DNA from: Podospora anserina
Taxonomy: Eukaryota
Direction: 5' to 3'
Assembly: GCA_017654855.1 (NCBI GenBank)
Contig: JAFMPO010000001.1
Location: forward strand, 1,116,001-1,180,000
Length of the DNA stretch: 64,000 nucleotides
Below the pieces are notes generated by a model. The model was not told the DNA's origin. It did not search any database and saw nothing but the letters and a program-made list of their open reading frames with translations. Numbering within the stretch: position 1 is the stretch's first letter; the number at the start of each line of letters is the position of its first letter. The translations under genes and the position numbers were made by a program. Shown here in pieces: positions 3 through 11,645 of the stretch.

Positions 3-3000
3 AACCTCCCGGTCGTCATCCATGTTGCGCTTGGTCCCAAGAGCTTCCCAGACTACTCGGCCATCACCTCCATCAGAAATTCGGGATGGACCTTCCTCCA
101 GTCCTGGTCCCTCCAGGAGGCTCAAGACATTGCGCTGACTGCTCATGCCTTGGCCATTCGCTCGGGCAAGGGTGTCATCCACTTCTTCGACCCCAGCTCC
201 GGTGCTGTTGCCGAGTCCATTGAGGGCGCGAGCGCCGACGTTGTCCGCGCTGTCCTCAACCTCGACAATGTGCGGAGGTTCCAGTCTGCGCCGATCTCGG
301 GGTCAGGGATCTACGCGGATGATGGGCGGGTCGCCGTGGTTTCTGAGCAGCCGGAACCCCTGGCTCTCTCTGGTGGAGTCACCGCCAACCAAGCAGGAGA
401 GGGTGAAGCAGAAACCCCTCTTCTTACCTCACAGTCGTCAGTCAAGTCCAGTCAACAGAGTGAGACCAGCACGCCACCAAGTGTATCCACTGCAACTACC
501 ATCGAGCCCGCAGCTCCCCTTGTGTCGTCCGAGGATATCTACAAGTACGTCACCGGCATCTGGGCTCAGCTCAACCAGCTTGTCGGCAGGCAATACAACG
601 CCTTCGAGTGGACGGGGTCACAATCGGCCGAAAACACCATCTTCCTCTTTGGCTCAGATGTTGCCTTGTTCTCTGACGCTATTGCCAAGGCACAGTCTGG
701 TGACTCCTTTGCCAACGCTGGCATCGTTGCTCCTAGACTTTACCGCCCGTGGCTGGGCGCCAAGTTGATCGATGCCCTTCCCAAATCTGTCAAGAGGGTG
801 GCAGTCCTTGAGCAGGTGTCGAGAAAGACCACAAAGTGGGGCCCCGTTCTCATCGATGTCTTGACTTCTGTCAAGAGTGCTGTTGGTGGTGTCGAGACTA
901 TTGTTGGGTACCAAATTGGCTACATCACCAAGGAAAGTGTCAAGCAAGCTTTGTCCGGTGTTTTCCAGAACTTGACTCTAGAAAAGCCTGTACAGAACTT
1001 GGAGGTTGGTGAGCGCGAGATTCCTCAGGAGACCTCCGAGTACGACCTTTCGAAGCCCAAGCTTGAGGTTTCTTATACCAAGATCCTCGATCAGTTGTTT
1101 GGAAGCAGAGCCTTTGTCGCCAACTCCCTCGATTCCGACAATGCCGGCGTCTCACGGACCATCTCGGCCACTCCCGAGTATGGTTTCGGCTCTCTCCTCG
1201 CCAGAAAGGAGCGCAGACAAAAGTTTGTTGCCGAGGTCAAGGAGGCCGCCAGCAATGGCCGTTTCCTGACTGAAGTTCCCAAGAGAGCCTTGGCCAAGTG
1301 GGTAGCTAGCGCTGACGATGCGAAGAAGTCTGAGGAGGCTGCCGAGGAGGTTGTTTCCAAGCTTACACTCGACAACTCGACGCCATCAAAGGCCCTGCTC
1401 CAGCACAAGGCATTCTTTCGCAAGCAGTCTCTTTGGCTTGTTGGGTCCGACGCCTGGGCTTATGACCTTGGCAACTCTGGCGTTCATCAGGTTCTGGCTT
1501 CGGGCGAAAATGTCAACCTGCTCATCATTGACTCGACCCCTTACTCTGAGCGCGCTGCCGCTGATGCGAACCGCAGAAAGAAGGACATTGGTCTCTATGC
1601 CATGAACTTTGGAAACGCTTACGTCGCCTCCACCGCCGTCTACAGCTCTTACACCCAGGTTCTTCAGGCTATGGATGAGGCCGACAAGTTCAATGGCCCC
1701 TCTATCGTTCTGGCTTATCTTCCCTACTTTGGTGAGCACGAGTCTCCTTTGACCGTTCTCACTGAGACCAAGAAGGCCGTGGACCTTGGTTACTGGCCTC
1801 TGTACCGGTGGAACCCCGAGAATGAGAAGAAGGGCGAGCCCAACTTCTCTCTTGACTCTGAGCGTATCAAGAAGGAGCTCAAGGCCTTCCTTGACAGAGA
1901 CAACCAGCTCACTCAGATGATGCGGAAGGAACCCCAGTTTGGTGCTGTTCTTGATCAGGACTTTGGTACTGAGATTCGCGCCCAGCAGAAGCGCAAGGCC
2001 AAGGATGCTTACAACCAGCTCTTGGAAGGTCTCTTCGGTGCGCCGTTGACCATTCTGTTTGGTTCTGATGGTGGCAACGCGCAGTCCCTCGCCAAGCGGT
2101 TGGGTACCAGGGGCCGTGCCCGTGGCCTGAAGACCACAGTCATGGCCATGGAGGACTACCCAGTCGAGGACTTGCCAACGGAGGAGAACATTGTCTTCAT
2201 CACCTCGACCGCCGGTCAGGGTGAGTTCCCCGTCAACGGCAAGCCTCTCTGGGATGCCATCAAGGACAGCACCGAGCTCGATCTTGCTTCCGTCAAGTAC
2301 TCCGTCTTCTCTCTTGGTGATAGCCACTACTGGCCCAGAAAGGAGGACAAGGTGTACTACAACAAGCCCGGAAAGGACCTCGATAGGGTTCTGGCCAACT
2401 TTGGCGGTTCCCGTCTGGCTCCTCTGGGTCTTGGTGATGACCAGGACCCAGATGGATACCAGACCGGCTACTCCGAGTGGGAGCCCAAGCTTTGGGAAGC
2501 CCTCGGCGTGTCAAAGGTCGATGGCCTCCCAGATGAGCCTCCCCCGATCACCAACGAGGACATCAAGATCGCCTCCAACTTCCTGCGTGGTACCATCGCC
2601 GAGGAGCTCTTGGACACATCTACCGGCGCCATCTCGGCTTCCAACCAGCAACTGACCAAGTTCCACGGCACATACATGCAGGATGATCGTGATGTCCGTG
2701 ACGAGCGCAAGGCCCAGGGTCTTGAGCCAGCCTACTCATTCATGATTCGCTGCAGACTTCCCGGCGGTGTCTCGACACCAAAGCAGTGGATCCAGATGGA
2801 CGACATTGCCAACGAGCTCGGAAACGAGACCATGAAGTTGACCACCCGTCAAACCTTCCAGTTCCACGGCGTCGTCAAGGCCAAGCTCAAGCCTGCCATG
2901 CAAGCCATCAACCGGGCTCTCATGGACACCCTTGCCGCCTGCGGTGATGTCAACCGTAACGTCATGTGCAGTCCTCTTCCTTCGCAGTCTGCCTACCATC

Positions 3001-4271
3001 GTGAGGTTTACTACTGGTCCAAGAAGATCAGCGAGCATCTTCTTCCATCGACTACCGCTTACCACGAGATCTGGCTCACCGACTACGACGGAAAGAAGAC
3101 GCAGGTCGCTGGTGACGCCGTCCAGGACTTTGAGCCCCTTTATGGACCTACTTACCTCCCCCGCAAGTTCAAGATCTCGATCGCCATCCCCCCACACAAC
3201 GATGTTGACGTGTACGCTCACGATATCGGCCTGATTGCCATCAAGGGTAACGACGGACATCTGCTTGGCTTCAACCTTCTTGTTGGTGGTGGTATGGGTA
3301 CCACTCACAACAACAAGAAGACGTATCCCCAAACCGGTCGCATGCTTGGTTTCGTCAAGGCTGACCAGACCCATATCGCCTGTGAGAAGGTCATGCTCGT
3401 CCAACGCGACCACGGTGACCGCAAGAACCGCAAGCACGCCAGATTGAAGTACACCGTTGACGATCTGACTGTCGATGTCTTCAGGTCCAAGGTTGAGGAA
3501 CTTTGGGGTCAGCCGTTCCTGCCTGCCAAGCCCTTCCACTTTGACAGCAATGTCGACACCTTTGGCTGGCTCAAGGATGAGACTGGCATGAACCACTTCA
3601 CCATGTTCATTGAGAACGGCCGTATCGAGGACACTGCCGACTTCCAGATGAAGACTGGCCTCAGGGAGATTGCCAAGGTTCATAAGGGCGAGTTCCGCCT
3701 CACCCCCAACCAGCATCTTATCCTCAGCAACGTTGCTGACGAGGATCTGGACACCCTCAAGAAACTTCTCGCCCAGTACAAGCTTGACAACCTCCACTTC
3801 TCCGCCCTCCGTCTCTCTTCTTCCGCCTGCGTTGCCTTCCCCACCTGCGGTCTCGCCATGGCCGAGTCTGAGCGCTACCTCCCGGTGCTGATCTCCAAGC
3901 TGGAGGCCTGCCTCGAGGAGAACGGCCTCAGGCAAGACAGCATCGTCATGCGCATGACCGGTTGTCCCAACGGTTGCGCCCGCCCCTGGTTGGCCGAGGT
4001 TGCCTTTGTCGGCAAGGCCTACGGTGCTTACAACATGTATCTCGGTGGTGGGTACCACGGCCAGAGACTCAACAAGCTCTACCGCAGCAGCATCAAGGAG
4101 GACGAGATTCTCGAGATCATGAGGGGCTTGCTCAGCCGGTACGCCAAGGAGAGGGAGCAGGGCGAAAGATTTGGTGACTGGACCATCCGTGCCGGCATCA
4201 TCAAGGCTACCACCGATGGCCGCAACTTCCACGAGGGTGTTGCCGAGGAGGAGGAGGAGGCAGAGGAGTGA
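3..4271 (+). CDS. MET5: Sulfite reductase (NADPH) beta/hemoprotein subunit, 5'-truncated by the window edge
   Basis: Frame is open from position 3 to TGA at 4269-4271. It has PFOR-like N-terminal regions, a flavodoxin motif (LFGSDGGNAQSLA, TSTAGQGEFP), and siroheme/4Fe-4S cysteines (CVAFPTC, GCPNGC) with the LPRKFK motif. Confidence 0.95.
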   Translation, partial: NLPVVIHVALGPKSFPDYSAITSIRNSGWTFLQSWSLQEAQDIALTAHALAIRSGKGVIHFFDPSSGAVAESIEGASADVVRAVLNLDNVRRFQSAPISGSGIYADDGRVAVVSEQPEPLALSGGVTANQAGEGEAETPLLTSQSSVKSSQQSETSTPPSVSTATTIEPAAPLVSSEDIYKYVTGIWAQLNQLVGRQYNAFEWTGSQSAENTIFLFGSDVALFSDAIAKAQSGDSFANAGIVAPRLYRPWLGAKLIDALPKSVKRVAVLEQVSRKTTKWGPVLIDVLTSVKSAVGGVETIVGYQIGYITKESVKQALSGVFQNLTLEKPVQNLEVGEREIPQETSEYDLSKPKLEVSYTKILDQLFGSRAFVANSLDSDNAGVSRTISATPEYGFGSLLARKERRQKFVAEVKEAASNGRFLTEVPKRALAKWVASADDAKKSEEAAEEVVSKLTLDNSTPSKALLQHKAFFRKQSLWLVGSDAWAYDLGNSGVHQVLASGENVNLLIIDSTPYSERAAADANRRKKDIGLYAMNFGNAYVASTAVYSSYTQVLQAMDEADKFNGPSIVLAYLPYFGEHESPLTVLTETKKAVDLGYWPLYRWNPENEKKGEPNFSLDSERIKKELKAFLDRDNQLTQMMRKEPQFGAVLDQDFGTEIRAQQKRKAKDAYNQLLEGLFGAPLTILFGSDGGNAQSLAKRLGTRGRARGLKTTVMAMEDYPVEDLPTEENIVFITSTAGQGEFPVNGKPLWDAIKDSTELDLASVKYSVFSLGDSHYWPRKEDKVYYNKPGKDLDRVLANFGGSRLAPLGLGDDQDPDGYQTGYSEWEPKLWEALGVSKVDGLPDEPPPITNEDIKIASNFLRGTIAEELLDTSTGAISASNQQLTKFHGTYMQDDRDVRDERKAQGLEPAYSFMIRCRLPGGVSTPKQWIQMDDIANELGNETMKLTTRQTFQFHGVVKAKLKPAMQAINRALMDTLAACGDVNRNVMCSPLPSQSAYHREVYYWSKKISEHLLPSTTAYHEIWLTDYDGKKTQVAGDAVQDFEPLYGPTYLPRKFKISIAIPPHNDVDVYAHDIGLIAIKGNDGHLLGFNLLVGGGMGTTHNNKKTYPQTGRMLGFVKADQTHIACEKVMLVQRDHGDRKNRKHARLKYTVDDLTVDVFRSKVEELWGQPFLPAKPFHFDSNVDTFGWLKDETGMNHFTMFIENGRIEDTADFQMKTGLREIAKVHKGEFRLTPNQHLILSNVADEDLDTLKKLLAQYKLDNLHFSALRLSSSACVAFPTCGLAMAESERYLPVLISKLEACLEENGLRQDSIVMRMTGCPNGCARPWLAEVAFVGKAYGAYNMYLGGGYHGQRLNKLYRSSIKEDEILEIMRGLLSRYAKEREQGERFGDWTIRAGIIKATTDGRNFHEGVAEEEEEAEE

Positions 4272-5145
4272 TTTTTGGATACACAGAATATGGAACAGAA
4301 AATGAGCAACGAGCAGGAGTCATGTAAATAGGGGATATTGGAGGGATGGCTTTTTGTCTACATTGCGAGCGCATTGCATGTTTTATTCTTCTTTTATTTG
4401 TTTGGTGTCAAAATAGGCGTTAAAAACAATTTGATTTGCTGTCTGAAACGATTCTAAATGTGCTTTGAAGTGCCTTGGGTTGCTTGGTTTCGCTGACACG
4501 GTCTGATAAAATAATGTTGCAAGTAAGGAGCCAAAATCGGGACTGTAACACTCTTTCAGATGCCTCCGTAAGCAAAGTAATAGAGATTCTCATGACACCA
4601 ACACCCCTTAATTCGGTATCTTGACAGCCCCCTCAACTATCTTCAAAATAAATTATGTTGAAATGTGGTTAGACCTCCTGATTATCTTCAAGGGCCTATT
4701 AGCTTTCTGTCTCCAATGCCCCCCTTCCCTTCCCAAGTCTCCGTTCTTGATTTCATGACATGGCTGGTGAGACTTCTGAGCAGACCCGTTCATGACATGT
4801 CAAGTCACAGCAAAGTTCCACACATTTATTCCCCTTAAGCTGTAGAAGGGCATCAAAAGTACCATAAGAAAGGGTATTATGTACCTAACGAAAAGCTAGA
4901 AACCAAACAAAGACAAAACAATTATTACCTCCCGCCCAGTTCGTCGTCAAAATTTGTCTATCATACATGACTTGATCATTCATTTCCATACACACATTTC
5001 TTTCATCTTTCCCTCATGCTTTTTTTCTCTCCTCACATAAACGCCCAAAAACACCTGCCCATCCTTCTTCTGTTGTCTAAACATGACAAAAAGCAAGCGT
5101 GCAAAAGAGAGAGAGAGGAGGGGAAGGTGGCGAATGATGAAACCA

Positions 5146-8100
5146 TCACCTCCTAACACTATTAGCAACCCCCTCTCCGATATCTCTCGCTCCGTCCCTC
5201 ATCTTCTCAATCAAACCCCTAGCCCAGTTGGGCACTGCGAACTTTGCTTTGACCCTGCCCTCCACCACCATGTTGATCAAGTTGATGATGGCAAAAGTCG
5301 TGCTCCCCAGGGCTCTGAAGGCCGCCAACGCGGCGACAGACCAGAGAATGAAGCGCAGGTAAAAGTTGTCGCCAATGCCACTGCTGCCATAGATTTCACT
5401 GACTGCCATGGCGAGCGTGGCGTTGGCCACCAACCAGGAAACAACCATGTAGGTACGGACCGACTTGTAGTAATCCTCCTGCAGCTGCGCGTCCGAGGGT
5501 GGCTTCTCGGGCACTTCAATTCTATCTCTGAGGTTGCGGAGGGCCTCGTCGTATCCAGAGTCGATGTCCAACTGCTCAGAGGGCATTTCCAACTCGACAG
5601 TCGAACCGGACCCCTTGCCGACGGCACCACCGAGATCCGTCTTCATGACGTTGTCGCCCTTTGTTCCCCAGGTGACGTCGTGGGTGTTGCAAAAGGCGTA
5701 GATTTGCAAAGTGCAAATGTACGAGGGCAGGAGAATCAGGTACGGGACGAAGGAGGTGAACATGTGCCAGGGGTCGAGGTACATGAAGGACATGACAAAG
5801 TAGAGACCAATAGTCGAGGCTGTCGAGACGATCATGTTGGTGAAGACGTTGTTGCCCATCTCGAGCTCGGACTTGTCCTTGTCCTCCTTCTTAGGGGAGA
5901 GCTGGTGGACGACAATCCAAATCGAGGCGAACAGCGTGTAGATCATGATGACAGCGTAGATGATCATGGACGCGAGGTACATCTTGCGGGAACCCTGGGG
6001 ACGGTTGCCGAGAGACAGGATGAACTGGGTCGAGATCAATAGAACACAGATATACCGGAGGATGGTGAAGATGTAGAGGGCAGCTTTGCCGTCGGCGTCG
6101 AAAGGTGTGACGTGGGGATCGGCAAGACCACCGGCGATGAAGTAGAAGGTGAGGTAGAAATTGGCGAGGGAGAAGTAGGTGAAGAGGAGTTGCAGGAGCT
6201 GATACAAGAACTCAATGTGCAGCAGCACCTTGCGGGCAATGGTGTGGTCGGTGAGCCAGATCTGCTTGAAATGCACCAGGGAATACACAGCGGCGAAGAA
6301 CGCTCCGTTCAGCCAGCGACGACGCTGGGAGACGAACTCGGGGACGGTGTCTTGGGGGTGTTAGCGATATCCCCTTATCAAAACAAAGCGGCAAAAGAAG
6401 GGGCTTACCAGGCACATCTGTCTCACCCGTGCAACCTTTGACGTACTTCAACACCCATCTCTCGCCGCGTTTGGCAACCAGCTCCCAGCACAAGATTCTG
6501 TCCTCGGCCAAGTACATGTTGGCGGTAAACACGTCGGCGTGCTGTCCATGGAGCGTCTCTCCCTTGAAGTACTGGCTCAGTGGCCCGTGCCCCGTTTCGT
6601 CATTCTGGAGCGCATGGTATCGGTACGCACTCAGGGCGCCAGGCAACACGGTGATGTAGCCAAACACCGACTCCAACGGTTTGTCCAGAATATTGGACAT
6701 TTTGTATTCGAAATTCTGTGACGCAACCAGCGGATTCAACAGATTGACTCCGTATTTACCTTTCATTGCTTTAATCTCTCCGCAAGCGCCGGCAACGTTC
6801 GAGTCGGTATCGAATGCCTTCCACAGGTGATATAGCGAGTTGCTCCCAGGCTTGGTTCCGACATCCAGCAAGATACACACGTTTGGGTTTAGCGCCTTGC
6901 CAAATGCGTTGAAGAACCATCTATGCGAGTTTAACTTCTTGGCGTTCTTTTCCTTCAAGCAAAAGATCATTTGGCAGGGCACTATCCCCTTCTCGGCGCC
7001 CTTGAACTTGAGATCCGAATCCAGAGAAACCTGCGTGGTGTACTCGTACACGTGGGCGGTGCAGTTGTGAACCACGGTGCGATCTGCAAGCTGGAAGAGC
7101 TCTCCCGAGACCTCGATGAGGCGGAACTCGCCGTCGCCGGCGTCCTCGACGTCGAAGGGCCGTACGTCCCTGTTCTTAGACGTGGTGAACGGGATCGTCA
7201 TGCGCTTTCGAGGGAGGAGGAGGTGAGGCTGGAACTTCTCCACCCCTCTGCCCATATAAAAGAACCAGCCAGGCTCAGGGCGGTCCTTACCATTCTTCCG
7301 TTCGAAGATAGGGTTACACTGGATCCCGCAGGAGAGGGCTAACTTGCGGGCGTCCTCAACAAGCTTCTTGAGCTCGTAGGTGTACTGGCCAAAGCCGTAA
7401 CAGTTGAGACCGTGAGAAAGCCATCCGTCGGATTCGATGAGGCCTGCGAGAACAGCCAGGCGCGTATTCTCGTCCGCGTTCATGTAGCAGTCGGGGATGC
7501 CACCGCTCTTGTCTCCCAGCAGGCCGAGTTCTCTGAGGCCGTCGTGAACAGGGTTCCAGTGTGTCTTGTCAAGGTTGCTTACAGTGCTCATAACACGCAA
7601 ACGATGAGCGACCTTTGTTGTCTTGATTTCTTCTCCCTTGTAGACGTGTTTTGTGCCGATATCAATCTTGTACTTGGATACTTTGAGAGGCGCTTTTCCA
7701 GGAGGGATACTATCACGGTTCAGGCGGTCGACGAGTGCCTGCGTGTAGACCTCGACCTCCGGATCCGTACTGGTAATCTCACTGTTGTTCTTAGTGCCAT
7801 TACCAAGCCAGAAACCAAACCAAAATGGGTCGATTGGGACAGGTGACACTGAACCCTGATACGGCTGGAACCTCAGGGGCGACCGATATAGTCTTAGCTT
7901 GCTCTTATGCTGCGTCATCGGAGCTGTGCAGGTTGCCTGATACTCCTCCAGCGTCATCGTGAACACCTCCATGTCCTGGACGGCGCAGGGGTCAACCACA
8001 CGGTAGTGATCTCCTGATAGCAGCTCAAGAGCGAGGTCGGCTTGCTCTGAGGTTTCGAAGACAGTCGATACCCTCCGAAGGCCCTTGCAGGACAGATTCT

Positions 8101-10696
8101 GACACTTGCACTTCGGATCACGCACTGCGAGCTTGCTCCGGACAGGGGCGAACATCTCCCTGTGGTCGTCCTCAGTGAGTACAGACGCGTACGTCGGCAC
8201 GGTCGACTGTGAGGCCTCGTTTTGAGACTGCTGTTGGCTGTTAACAGGAGACGACTTGATGGAAGGAGACTGGCGGAAAGTCTTGTCCGAGATGCGGGAA
8301 GACAGCGTGCTGATAGTGCCAATCTTTCTCTTCCGGTTGGTATCAAGATCGATGATCAAGTCGTCGTTGTCCTCGTCAGAGATATCCTCTGGCTCAGGTA
8401 TCATGTGCTCAAGATAGTCCTCCATGTGCTGCTGTAGCAGCATCAATACTACCGATTCATCCTCACCGTCGACGTCCACGTCCATAGCCTTGAGCTTGGC
8501 CAGCAGCTTGATGAGAACAGGACTCTGATATGTCTCTTCAACCCTCTGAGAGTCATCATCTTCAGAATCGGGGACAACTCTCGTAGACGTGATGGCCTTC
8601 AGGTACTTGCGGACCTCAGCATCAGTCGGACGGCGACCCAGCTGCTCACGGTATTCGGTATACAGATCATGCATGGCTGCATCCCACTTGATCTCAACCG
8701 CATCGGCCCCAAGCTCGGTTCGATCGCAACGAGTCCACCACGTAACACGGTTGCTGTTCGAATGCCTGAAGGGCTTGACACCATAAGCCACCAGGGTCAT
8801 GATATGGTCCGGCGTACAGGTGAAGGACGACTTGCTGACGCTGTTGTACCCGGTGTAGGTAACCTTCATCATGCGGGAGGTCTGAATAGCCTCAGCAGCT
8901 AGGCACTGGACGGGTCGGTCCTCGTGGTCGAAGAGCTGGTCTCCTACAGCGATGTCTCGGATGGGCTTGTCACCATTGGTGGTGCGGACCATCGTGTCTG
9001 GAGAGAGACACGTCTTCTGGTTGACGTAATTCTTTGCGATGCCGTGCTGGTAGACGCCCATGGCTGCCAAGGCGTCGAGTGTGCGAGGGTGAATCTTTTC
9101 TCGTCCATCAGACACCACACACACAACGATTTTCTGCCATCCGTTCTCTCCCCACGTTCGTGACTTGTTACGGCTGCAAAAGTGGGAGATGTTCTTCATG
9201 ACAGCGTGCATCGTGCGCGTGAAGCCATACTCGTCTTCGTTGTACATGGTGATGCAAATAAACAATTCCGTCTCGCGGGCGGTCCGGCCAATGTTCTGAC
9301 GCAGCTTGTAGCCCCTTTCAACAAAGTCGTCTGGGTCGCAGGTCACGGCCGTGTAGCGCATATGAGTAAACTCGATTTCGTCGCGGCGCGGGAGGAATGA
9401 GTACAAGATGGTGGGGATCTTGCACTCCAACACGAGTTCACCATTGATAAGCTGCACCTCTCTCTTGCTCATTTGGGGGGCGCGGACACCACGGCGCTCC
9501 TGTCGCCCCTCTGCCGGTGCTGGAACGTAGCGGTCAGCCTTCTCACGAACATCACCATCTTCATCGTAATATTCATTCTCGTTCAGGGTCATTTGATCTG
9601 CCGAGTAGGATGAGTGGGTATGATGGTGCCGTCTGTTGTCAGTGACGTCTGACTCGGGGCCAAAGGGATCGTCGTGATGGCTGGCAAGTGGGATGTTGAC
9701 TGTTGCATCATCGTGAAAGCTGGTCGTCGACTGCATGCCCCTCGTTGGACTGTTGTACATTGGGGCACGGGGAAGGGGTCGGCGCGGAGAGCCTCCGTAG
9801 ACGGTGGAAGGGGTTCCTGGGCGGGGGGCTCCATTGATATCGGCGGGCTCGAACCTGTGGCTGTGTGGTGGTGGGTGGCCGCGTGGAGGGGAATACTCGG
9901 GGGATGATGCTCGTGAAGGGCCCCAACTGCTCTCGTTCATGCTACTCTGATCATACGAAACATACGACTCGGTCGGTGGGTGCATTCGGAGGGGCGGGTC
10001 GAGAATAGAGGACCGTGAATCAATCGATGGTTCGTATGGCTGTCGTCTTCTGCCTCTGTTTTCATTTTCTTGTGAGCCTCTCATCCATACTCTTGACGGC
10101 ACTTGTGGGCTGGGTAGTTGTCTAAGAAATTGTGAATCCGGTGGAGAGCTGCCTGGTGATGTTGCGGCTGTTTCACATCTCGCCTGAAACTGGCGTAACG
10201 ACTTCCTGCGGGGAGAAGGCCCTTCAGGCAGGACAGGAAGGTCCTCGGGAACGACGACAGGGTGGACCGAAGGGGTGAACTTTTTTCTTCTCTGAAGCCT
10301 GAATTTTGGAGTGGCGGGCTGCTGACTACCTGTCTGCATTGTGGCCGGTTTGAAGACATCGGGCGCAGTCCCGATGATGAGAGCGCCGTCTTGTTCTTTG
10401 AGGGCATCGACGTCCACACAAAAGTCGCCGTTGGATCTGGGGGGCAAGGAAAGAGGGGGGGGAATAGAAACGGGTGGTAACACATACGGCCTCTCATGCC
10501 TATCAGATTCCTGATAATCACTAGGGTCCTCCATATCCGTCAACAGCCTGACATTAGAACCGTGGCCATGCGCGGTGCCCATGCCAGTGGTGCTCGATTC
10601 GTGGTGGACATCATCGTAAGCTGGCAGCATGTACTCGGGCGGTACTGGTACGCGTCCGCCTGGCGGGGAGTTGGGCCTGCCGAGCCTGTTGTCCAT
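5146..10696 (-). CDS. CHS2: Chitin synthase (class I/II, CHS2-like) containing an intein
   Basis: Motifs [35 protein letters not shown], and QRRRWLNG once intron 6351-6408 (GTAAGC...CTAAC...AAG) is removed; C-terminal TM region with [12 protein letters not shown] at 10696 (MDNRLG) is a best guess. Possible further intron at 10056-10487. Confidence 0.95.
7064..9010 (-). mobile_element. Intein with LAGLIDADG homing endonuclease (649 aa) in chitin synthase
   Basis: In-frame 1947-nt insertion between KNYVNQKT and [11 protein letters not shown]. Block A CLSPDTMV, block [19 protein letters not shown]-like [10 protein letters not shown] and [12 protein letters not shown], block G TVVHN followed by Cys+1. 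Confidence 0.97.
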
Positions 10697-11645
10697 TGCG
10701 CTTCCTCTCTCAAGAAATCTCAAGGTCGGGCGTGATGGCGCGCAGCCGAGGAATGTGTCTCACGGACACGCGGCACGCTGGAGACAAAGCCAGAGTTGTG
10801 TTGAAAAGTCCAGTGGGGATTGCTGGGAATGTTTGTTAGCTACCAGACGTGTCAAGGAACCGGCGCAAACTTACAACGAGGCGGTCGCAAAGAAGCCGTT
10901 GAATGGCGTGCAGCGTGGAGCAAATGCAAGTTGAAAATGGGGTACACTTGAACAAAGCGCAGAGGAGAGCTTTGAACGGGGCTGCGGGCTCAATACATGG
11001 GATTCTGCAAATCCAGCGTGTGCGCTTCGTTGGGTCGTAATGTTGTCTCCCTTACTTCCCCGCTGTTGCTGGGGCAACTCCACTTTGCTGGGGTTCGGTG
11101 TCGTGCTGTAGCGGCTGCACGGGCCAATGACAGGGCCGTTTAGGTGGACCTGTGCCTTGAAAAGGTGGGGCTTGGCGCGTGGAGGCCCGCCGATGGTGTG
11201 GTTGATCAGTTTGCTGCAGAAGAGTCGCCGTTCATCGACCGCATGGATTGGCCTGTGCGATGATTCGGAAACAATACCCGTGGAGATGTCGAATGCTGGA
11301 ATGGAAACCAGCAAAGTGAAATAAGTGAGGGATGTATGTCAACCGACGTGATTTGAGGCGGAGTGAGAACGAGAAGGCTATGTTGCTCTACCGATGTCGT
11401 AGTGCTGAATAACAGGAGGTTGGGAAGACCAAATAAGGGACCTAGCTCAAGGTGCTTGCGTGGTCTGGTGAAACTGGCAGGGGTCGTCCGCAGGTGTCTC
11501 CATGCCTGTGGCATCATCATTCAGGGCACTGTTGTTCCTTCCTGGTGTATAGAACCCGGAGCAGTCGCGACCTATTTACGGTTACTCCTTCCTCAGCCAA
11601 TCCAGATGACACACCGCCTTGATCCATGAGTTATTGCACTCGATA

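Follow-up and report, generated by a model that had tools for sequence, protein, structure and literature searches.

The CHS2 intein of Podospora anserina is retained in messenger RNA, carries asparagine at a conserved nuclease position and is nearly identical to inteins in divergent hosts

In a 64,000-nucleotide stretch of the Podospora anserina genome (contig JAFMPO010000001.1, positions 1,116,001 to 1,180,000; hereafter the window), the minus strand encodes a class II chitin synthase whose catalytic domain is divided by the CHS2 intein (Table 1). The host frame appears as a single open reading frame (ORF) of 1515 codons (6212-10759, minus strand), which matches the Pfam families Chitin_synth_1N (E 3.9e-26), Chitin_synth_1 (E 1.2e-74) and Chitin_synth_2 (E 2.9e-11); the remaining ORFs of at least 100 residues listed over the locus are all of 167 residues or shorter. 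Translation of the intein segment gives 649 stop-free residues, which start with Cys1 (TGT, 9010-9008) and end in LADRTVVHN, with His648-Asn649 encoded by CAC AAC at 7069-7064 and directly followed by Cys+1 (TGC). In between, residues 66-69 form the tetrapeptide TPDH (block B, TxxH), and a LAGLIDADG-like block occurs twice, at residues 394-406 and again at 518-530. An earlier reading of the DNA letters, hereafter the original prediction, had described a 649-residue in-frame insert with Cys1, TPDH, two LAGLIDADG-like motifs and an HN/Cys+1 junction, and its coordinates and motifs are all correct. It had also claimed that the insert divides a conserved chitin synthase segment, which comparison with empty orthologues bears out. 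The segment is contiguous in these orthologues and is cut in the window as NQKT/intein/C-extein (slashes mark splice junctions throughout), at a point 80 residues past the start of TMYNE (339) and 65 residues ahead of LLDVGT (1132) in precursor numbering.

The element itself is nothing new, as it was described in 2005 and is held in intein databases. The entry CHSi_Podospora_anserina in the supplement of PMC5784728 is 649 residues long, and the 400 residues displayed there are those of the window protein (P0001). Thus, the published PanCHS2 intein and the window segment share length, gene and sequence, with no sequence difference over the displayed part. Moreover, the public protein PODANS_1_24310 (P0019, P. 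anserina S mat+, 1178 residues) is reproduced exactly by the window translation once 9013-7058 is taken out and a 432-nt intron is kept, so the window represents the PODANS_1_24310 locus. PMC1635734 names CHS2 as one of five nuclear genes in which inteins were known at the time, gives P. anserina as the only holder of the CHS2 intein and credits it to Butler, Goodwin & Poulter 2005, Yeast 22:493. The P. anserina CHS2 intein is also named in the corresponding part of PMC5056185, and the supplement of PMC5784728 lists four chitin synthase inteins, from P. anserina, Gaeumannomyces graminis, Fusarium fujikuroi and Diaporthe helianthi. Judged by its sequence, the segment is the published PanCHS2 intein (an InBase entry), an already known element rather than a new site; the original prediction had suspected as much, and the supplement entry and the PODANS_1_24310 match settle that it is the same element. 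What we add is an RNA-based correction of the gene model, the substitution D404N, a count of empty alleles, a transfer signal, a set of insertion sites and new host genes. The D404N substitution or the comparison of the site with empty alleles may already be contained in Butler, Goodwin & Poulter 2005 or in Poulter et al. 2007.

The fate of the segment in the messenger was examined with contigs of the runs X1, X2 and X8, which come from three studies, over positions 5000-10900, with the DNA-like run X15 as a control. The contigs of X1, X2 and X8 skip the three introns of Table 1, all of which have GT..AG ends on the gene strand, and none of the three intron joints is present in X15. The RNA status of these runs was a guess in the run listing and was derived afterwards from the removed introns: the skipped GT..AG introns, with joints absent from X15, indicate that X1, X2 and X8 contain spliced RNA. 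The same spliced contigs are unbroken over 6409-10055, with 0 differences and no gaps, and no joint at the intein occurs in the contigs of the three runs. As the intein is retained in spliced RNA contigs, it is not an intron. Removal at the RNA level, which the original prediction had named as the observation that should overturn it, was looked for, and the spliced contigs of all three studies keep the segment. The RNA-supported coding sequence (10696-10488, 10055-6409 and 6350-5149) thus comprises 1686 codons. In the precursor of 1686 residues, the intein occupies positions 419-1067, and the computed mature enzyme has 1037 residues, compared to the 1178 residues of the public protein.

The public model differs from this structure at two places. 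It cuts out the intein together with three flanking codons (9013-7058), leaving non-canonical AC..CC ends, and keeps the 432-nt intron, and the RNA contigs contradict it on both counts. We consider it extremely improbable that the spliceosome, or another process at the RNA level, removes the segment, as this model implies. The 1178-residue protein does equal the window with 9013-7058 cut out; however, the modelled gap has AC..CC rather than GT..AG ends, the spliced contigs of three studies drop three true introns yet keep 6409-10055 whole, and the segment is an open frame of 649 codons with intein motifs that recur in all 18 aligned sequences. The reference protein PODANS_1_24310 therefore conceals the intein, and proteome-based surveys of P. 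anserina will overlook it.

An alignment of the window intein with 17 relatives revealed that Cys1, Thr66, His69, His648 and Asn649 are invariant in all 18 sequences, with Cys+1 conserved in at least 90% of them. The Pfam profiles match below their curated cutoffs, namely Hint_2 with 17.5 bits against 28.4, Hom_end_hint with 14.7 against 32.1 and LAGLIDADG_3 with 16.9 against 22.5. A phmmer search against the sequences of the Protein Data Bank (PDB) found PI-SceI, the VMA1 intein of Saccharomyces cerevisiae, as the sole significant match (E 6.2e-5, residues 479-592), and the alignment places the second LAGLIDADG block on LAGLIDSDGY of PI-SceI and Asp528 on Asp326 (numbering counted from the alignment). 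In the profile check that had accompanied the original prediction, the Pfam matches thus stay sub-threshold, and the domains find their support in the PI-SceI sequence match, the predicted fold and the conservation across 18 sequences.

The AlphaFold2 model, computed from the 18-sequence alignment, has a mean predicted local distance difference test score (pLDDT) of 63.4 and a predicted template modelling score (pTM) of 0.48. It shows β-strands over residues 7-94 in Hint-N; the pLDDT is mostly 70-90 at residues 390-590 and falls below 50 at residues 204-281, a stretch of predicted disorder. In a structural similarity search using Foldseek, PI-SceI chains took the first ten places (E 4.4e-11 to 4.3e-8); I-DmoI, the TliVMA intein, a DnaB intein and the hedgehog Hint domain 1at0 (E 1.1e-2) came after them. 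Superposition with VIA-align gave PI-SceI a Z score of 14.5 across residues 1-636 of the model. The nuclease domain was matched by that of the TliVMA intein (Z 14.0, with a root-mean-square deviation (RMSD) of 2.9 Å, model residues 386-607), by PI-PfuI (Z 12.3) and by I-DmoI (Z 11.4). The mini-inteins gp41-1, Msm DnaB and MchDnaB aligned over model residues 1-648 with Z 8.2-8.5, RMSD 3.4-3.8 Å and 118-122 aligned residues (gp41-1: Z 8.5, RMSD 3.6 Å, 122 aligned), and Mtu RecA and Npu DnaE with Z 6.8-6.9.

PI-SceI (PDB 1VDE, 1LWS, 1DFA), the best structural match, shares with the window intein the architecture of a Hint domain interrupted by a LAGLIDADG domain. They differ in the host gene and in sequence (12-18% aligned identity); in addition, the window intein has about 290 extra residues (100-385) and an Asn in place of the first catalytic Asp. 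The in-frame insertion, the splicing residues, the predicted Hint fold and the retention in mature mRNA are those of a class 1 intein, and the model displays the two-motif LAGLIDADG fold of the PI-SceI / I-DmoI type. Altogether, the model supports a PI-SceI-type intein that would combine a Hint splicing domain with a LAGLIDADG endonuclease domain. The extra region of ~290 residues between Hint-N and the nuclease consists, in the model, of helices, an acidic and Ser-rich disordered stretch (204-281) and a small α/β unit (~311-375) that is accompanied by conserved cysteines (C303, C308); most of the window-specific changes fall within this region.

The window has every residue of the class 1 pathway (Cys1, TxxH, His-Asn and Cys+1). 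From these residues, we propose that splicing would begin with an N-S acyl shift at Cys1, proceed by trans-thioesterification through the attack of Cys+1 and by cyclisation of Asn649, and end with an S-N shift that would free the 649-residue intein and the 1037-residue enzyme. The intact residues, together with purifying selection on the exteins, point to autocatalytic protein splicing. Compared to four copies from metagenome contigs (L001-L004, described below), the exteins have a ratio of nonsynonymous to synonymous substitution rates (dN/dS) of 0.03-0.07, a range given without the L001 C-extein (0.29; 3 stops) and the uncorrectable C-extein values of L003 and L004. Because the insert divides the glycosyltransferase domain between TMYNE and LLDVGT, the original prediction was on sound ground in proposing that the activity of this class II chitin synthase isozyme would depend on splicing.

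A decayed intein with its splicing lost, in a chitin synthase copy that is dead or dying, is a very improbable description of this locus. One nuclease active-site Asp is already lost, and some filamentous fungi can do without their class II chitin synthases, both of which would suit such decay. However, the splicing residues are all intact, with 0 window-specific changes in 141 Hint codons, and the exteins differ from those of the sibling P0002 at only 3 of 1037 residues (99.7% identity, compared to 96.6% for the inteins). Moreover, the low extein dN/dS holds wherever the comparison is stop-free and unsaturated, and the gene is transcribed with its introns removed.

Overall, we put the probability at about 0.9 that the segment is a known intein that is retained in mRNA and removed by protein splicing. 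Several points weigh against this reading. Protein splicing is predicted from the sequence. The RNA nature of the three runs follows from the introns only, and contigs lose rare variants, so that a minor isoform may exist. The Hint and LAGLIDADG matches in Pfam all lie under the curated cutoffs, and Pfam alone neither confirms nor rejects the assignment. The AlphaFold2 model, from 18 sequences, is middling in quality, and the whole-chain superposition on PI-SceI has an RMSD of ~18-19 Å, because the placement of the domains differs from that in PI-SceI.

Table 1. Features of the chitin synthase gene and its intein, in window coordinates
Feature	Position	Strand	Evidence
52-nt GT..AG intron in the 5' leader, upstream of the ATG	10823..10874	-	RNA contigs
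Coding part of exon 1, ATG at 10696-10694	10488..10696	-	RNA contigs
In-frame 432-nt GT..AG intron	10056..10487	-	RNA contigs (joint 10055/10488)
N-extein part of exon 2: N-terminal region and early catalytic domain including TMYNE	9011..10055	-	Pfam, RNA contigs
Intein coding sequence (PanCHS2), 649 codons, Cys1 to Asn649	7064..9010	-	translation; match to published entry
Hint-N splicing part, residues 1-99, with Cys1 and TPDH; boundary approximate	8714..9010	-	conservation, model, mini-intein alignment
Insert between Hint-N and nuclease, residues 100-385	7856..8713	-	AlphaFold2 secondary structure
LAGLIDADG homing-endonuclease domain, residues 386-607	7190..7855	-	VIA-align, phmmer
First LAGLIDADG block, codon 404 AAT (Asn) at 7801-7799	7793..7831	-	alignment, codon check
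Second LAGLIDADG block, Asp528 GAC at 7429-7427	7421..7459	-	PI-SceI alignment
Hint-C splicing part, residues 608-649, ending LADRTVVHN	7064..7189	-	conservation
Cys+1, first C-extein residue; Val in empty alleles	7061..7063	-	codon check, orthologue alignment
C-extein part of exon 2: catalytic domain with LLDVGT, EIKAMKG, QNFEY and LAEDR motifs	6409..7063	-	RNA contigs, motifs
58-nt GT..AG intron	6351..6408	-	RNA contigs
Last exon: QRRRW and membrane region, stop TGA at 5148-5146	5146..6350	-	ORF, RNA contigs

The nuclease domain of the window copy departs from the family at one of its two metal-binding positions. Residue 404, which closes the first LAGLIDADG helix, is Asp in 15 of the 18 aligned sequences, Asn in the window and P0002, and Ala in P0015; accordingly, the block ends in GDG in 15 of 18 and in GNG in the window and P0002 only. 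The Asp of the second motif is kept in 15 of 18 and is present in the window as Asp528. In the text of PMC1508164 on the VMA intein, Asp-218 and Asp-326 are described as coordinating metal and as critical for activity. Of this acidic pair, the window thus has the second member and Asn404 instead of the first. Compared to the four metagenome copies, the window-specific changes in the nuclease domain are one synonymous and four nonsynonymous (P387S, D404N, G481D and H547L), compared to six synonymous and seven nonsynonymous in the insert 100-385 and none of either kind in the 141 Hint codons, Hint-C included. The pairwise counts in the nuclease domain, with 3-6 synonymous versus 9-13 nonsynonymous differences per pair, are too small to indicate decay by themselves.

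With Asn404 in place of the first metal-binding Asp, the window nuclease has probably lost its activity in this lineage or, at most, acts as a nickase. It is unlikely that the endonuclease is still fully active, with Asn404 tolerated and the element able to home in P. anserina. In favor of an active enzyme, Asp528 is present, the remainder of the domain is intact with 97.4-97.9% nucleotide identity to the copies with Asp404, and the domain is predicted to fold, with a pLDDT of mostly 70-90 over residues 390-590. Against it stand the presence of Asp in 15 of 18 sequences with Asn private to the window and its near-identical sibling P0002, the critical role assigned to both Asp residues of the VMA intein nuclease in the passage of PMC1508164 cited above, and the nonsynonymous nature of four of the five window-specific changes in the domain. 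On the side of caution regarding inactivity, a phmmer search of residues 371-470 against the PDB sequences gave 0 matches and no pairwise alignment of the first block with PI-SceI. The equivalence of Asn404 and Asp218 is hence suggested by the motif position and by the end of the model helix 395-404, and Asn404 could leave residual or nicking activity. The segment belongs to the LAGLIDADG family by descent and fold, whereas its status as an active nuclease is doubtful; the label "homing-endonuclease" in the original prediction fits the domain, though not necessarily an activity of this copy.

Changes at the same catalytic positions were seen elsewhere in the family. The second catalytic Asp is lost in P0010 (ESNG), P0015 (ESHG) and P0018 (ESGG), of which P0015 is without both, and P0016 has an internal deletion of ~120 residues. 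The Asp losses and the deletion indicate that decay of the nuclease is recurrent in the intein family, in which 13 of 18 members keep both Asp residues.

Occupied and empty alleles were surveyed with a search by the C-extein, from which the best 120 class II chitin synthase clusters were examined. A comparison of exteins had been suggested with the original prediction; the insert is absent from 117 of the 120. Two of the other three are occupied, P0002 and P0006 of G. tritici, and one is the mis-modelled P. anserina entry. After the K/R residue, 111 of the 117 empty clusters read AVQ and three AVT, and three are variants (PVT-GH, AVH-AH and AVQ-SH). The empty relatives include Cercophora samala, Apiosordaria backusii, Podospora fimiseda, P. 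australis, P. didyma and Neurospora crassa. The empty allele reads K-A-V-Q-A-H, compared to K-T/intein/C-T-A-H in the window; the Val at position +1 of the empty alleles and the Cys in the window indicate that the splicing Cys arrives with the intein. The insertion point of the window is also occupied by the allelic copies P0002-P0004, P0006 and L001-L006. Among the P. anserina runs, 20 of the 24 listed contain the stretch and the other four are very small; no empty allele was found in them, which is not evidence of fixation.

Inteins are rare in nuclear genes, and the case for their horizontal movement has mostly been built on VMA1 and PRP8. A scan of metagenome contigs yielded eight loci, of which L001-L006 and a 54-residue fragment (L008) are inteins at the window site. 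The full-length L001-L004, on contigs of 14.6-55 kb, are free of stops and retain the two Asp residues, as does the partial L005; in L006, also partial, only the second motif is visible. Over the intein, the window and L001-L004 share 97.3-98.0% of nucleotides, with 0.030-0.049 synonymous substitutions per synonymous site (dS). By contrast, 200 codons of the N-extein show 75-79% nucleotide identity and dS of 1.6-2.1, and 215 codons of the C-extein, compared with L002-L004, show 80-81% identity and dS of 1.77 or too saturated for correction. L001 was omitted from the C-extein comparison for its 3 stops in 645 nt, probably an intron. The hosts are 71-79% identical among themselves over 600 nt, with L003 and L004 representing the same host, and the inteins form a shallow star at 97.3-98.0% (L003/L004 99.7%).

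The same contrast between intein and extein is seen in the proteins. The identity to the window is 96.3% for the intein versus 77.1% for the extein in P0003, 95.1% versus 85.4% in P0004 and 89.5% versus 78.1% in G. tritici P0006, the opposite of the sibling P0002, in which the extein is the more conserved part. In P0006, even the intein stretch predicted to be disordered is 78% identical, compared to 50% for the N-terminus of the extein. Since the DNA is near-identical in very divergent hosts and almost all orthologues are empty, we hold with good confidence that the intein is a recent horizontal arrival and not an old resident. Near-identical inteins in hosts with saturated synonymous divergence are also indirect evidence that suggests mobility in the intein family.

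The transfer reading leans on metagenome contigs, and the named isolate, G. tritici P0006, was compared as protein only. If these contigs were chimeric between an intein-bearing fungus and other fungi, the near-identity would be an assembly artefact. The exteins are conserved at the junctions: upstream, 18 bases are identical in L002-L004, and downstream the first difference comes after 3 to 8 identical bases. An assembler that works with short words could join different sequences across such stretches. Nevertheless, the four inteins differ by 2.0-2.7% from the window and from each other (apart from the 99.7% identical L003 and L004) and are not one pasted sequence; the contigs reach the lengths given above, the L001-type protein (P0003) is recorded from three sources (jgi, lgn and ena), and the isolate P0006 contrasts in the same direction in both comparisons. 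We thus regard chimerism as quite improbable and retain the recent horizontal arrival as the better explanation.

Among the 17 relatives examined, the chitin synthase inteins occupy three sites, a, b and c. Site a, that of the window, is used in P0002-P0004 and P0006, and also in P0005, which is another paralogue (extein 55%, intein 88.6% identical). Site b, in the EIKAMKG-LLNPL loop ~100 residues after the window site in mature numbering, is used in P0008-P0013 and P0016 and in the metagenome locus L007. Site c (LLNPL/C...N/CAMQNFEYK) lies 7 residues beyond site b and is used in P0007, a third paralogue (extein 47.5%, intein 87.8% identical). The remaining relatives have other hosts, namely Sel1-repeat proteins (P0014, P0015), GLT1 (P0017) and SNF5 (P0018). 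The chitin synthase inteins of Diaporthe and Fusarium fujikuroi (P0009-P0011, P0013) belong to the same family, with 54-60% identity and the same host protein family, but they sit at a different point, site b, and the window site is empty in the same Diaporthe proteins. In the supplement table of PMC5784728, Diaporthe and Gaeumannomyces are assigned to site 'A' and P. anserina to 'Prob A', with the comment that the site is probably the same. The C-extein cells of that table differ among themselves, with CSNLLNPL in contrast to another C-extein. As tabulated there, the published catalogue has a single site where at least three are present in chitin synthases.

The closest non-allelic relatives are the GLT1 inteins (P0017 of Diaporthe citri and the published PanGLT1), with 46-48% full-length identity. 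Their block sequences are as in the window intein, including the LADRTVVHN end, whereas the host gene and the flanks (MRK/C...HN/CHLNTC) differ. The similarity between GLT and CHS inteins is given as 48.3-56.9% in the relevant part of PMC5784728. Two proteins of ~650 residues, P0138 and P0140, were considered as free-standing HO-like genes and rejected, since their MRK/C start and HN/CHLNT end identify them as cut GLT1 gene models.

An exhaustive search of representative proteins gave 31 matches at E ≤1e-30 and 278 at E ≤1e-10, and added the Sel1-repeat host P0137 and a host with a kinesin motor, P0145, in which the match to the kinesin domain begins at profile position 91, directly after the intein. 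The inteins of the Sel1-repeat, SNF5 and kinesin-motor hosts are full-length relatives with 43-53% identity. The insertion point in the Sel1-repeat hosts reads WYKRA/C..HN/CTLGD, and these hosts are perhaps Skt5/Chs4-like. In the literature covered, from which subscription papers were left aside, no report was found of natural inteins in SNF5, Sel1/Skt5/Chs4 or kinesin of Pezizomycotina.

Two further observations concern the host gene and its surroundings. The 432-nt intron is removed in the main contigs and kept in low-depth contigs of all three RNA runs (records 2, 6 and 10), and orthologue gene models (e.g. P0020, P0051, P0052 and P0125) contain a coding stretch corresponding to it; the N-terminal region may thus have an alternative segment that is conserved. 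Convergent with the chitin synthase gene lies a gene at 3-4271 on the plus strand, cut by the window start, that is sulfite reductase beta-like (NIR_SIR, E 2.2e-48; Flavodoxin_1, E 1.2e-30; NIR_SIR_ferr, E 2.1e-30).

Altogether, we propose that the PanCHS2-type intein is likely a nuclear homing element with very recent crossings between species of Sordariomycetes and with the ability to enter new sites and genes, of which the P. anserina copy would represent the post-invasion stage of the homing cycle. The latter view is drawn from a copy that is fixed in the holders seen, with the Hint part perfectly conserved and a catalytic Asp lost. The contrast between an intein dS of 0.03-0.05 and a host dS of at least 1.6 would be an unusually clean sign, at the DNA level, of current or very recent transfer between filamentous fungi. 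In addition, the Asp404 and Asn404 copies, which differ by ~2% in DNA, offer a natural pair for tests of nuclease activity and of degeneration in the homing cycle.

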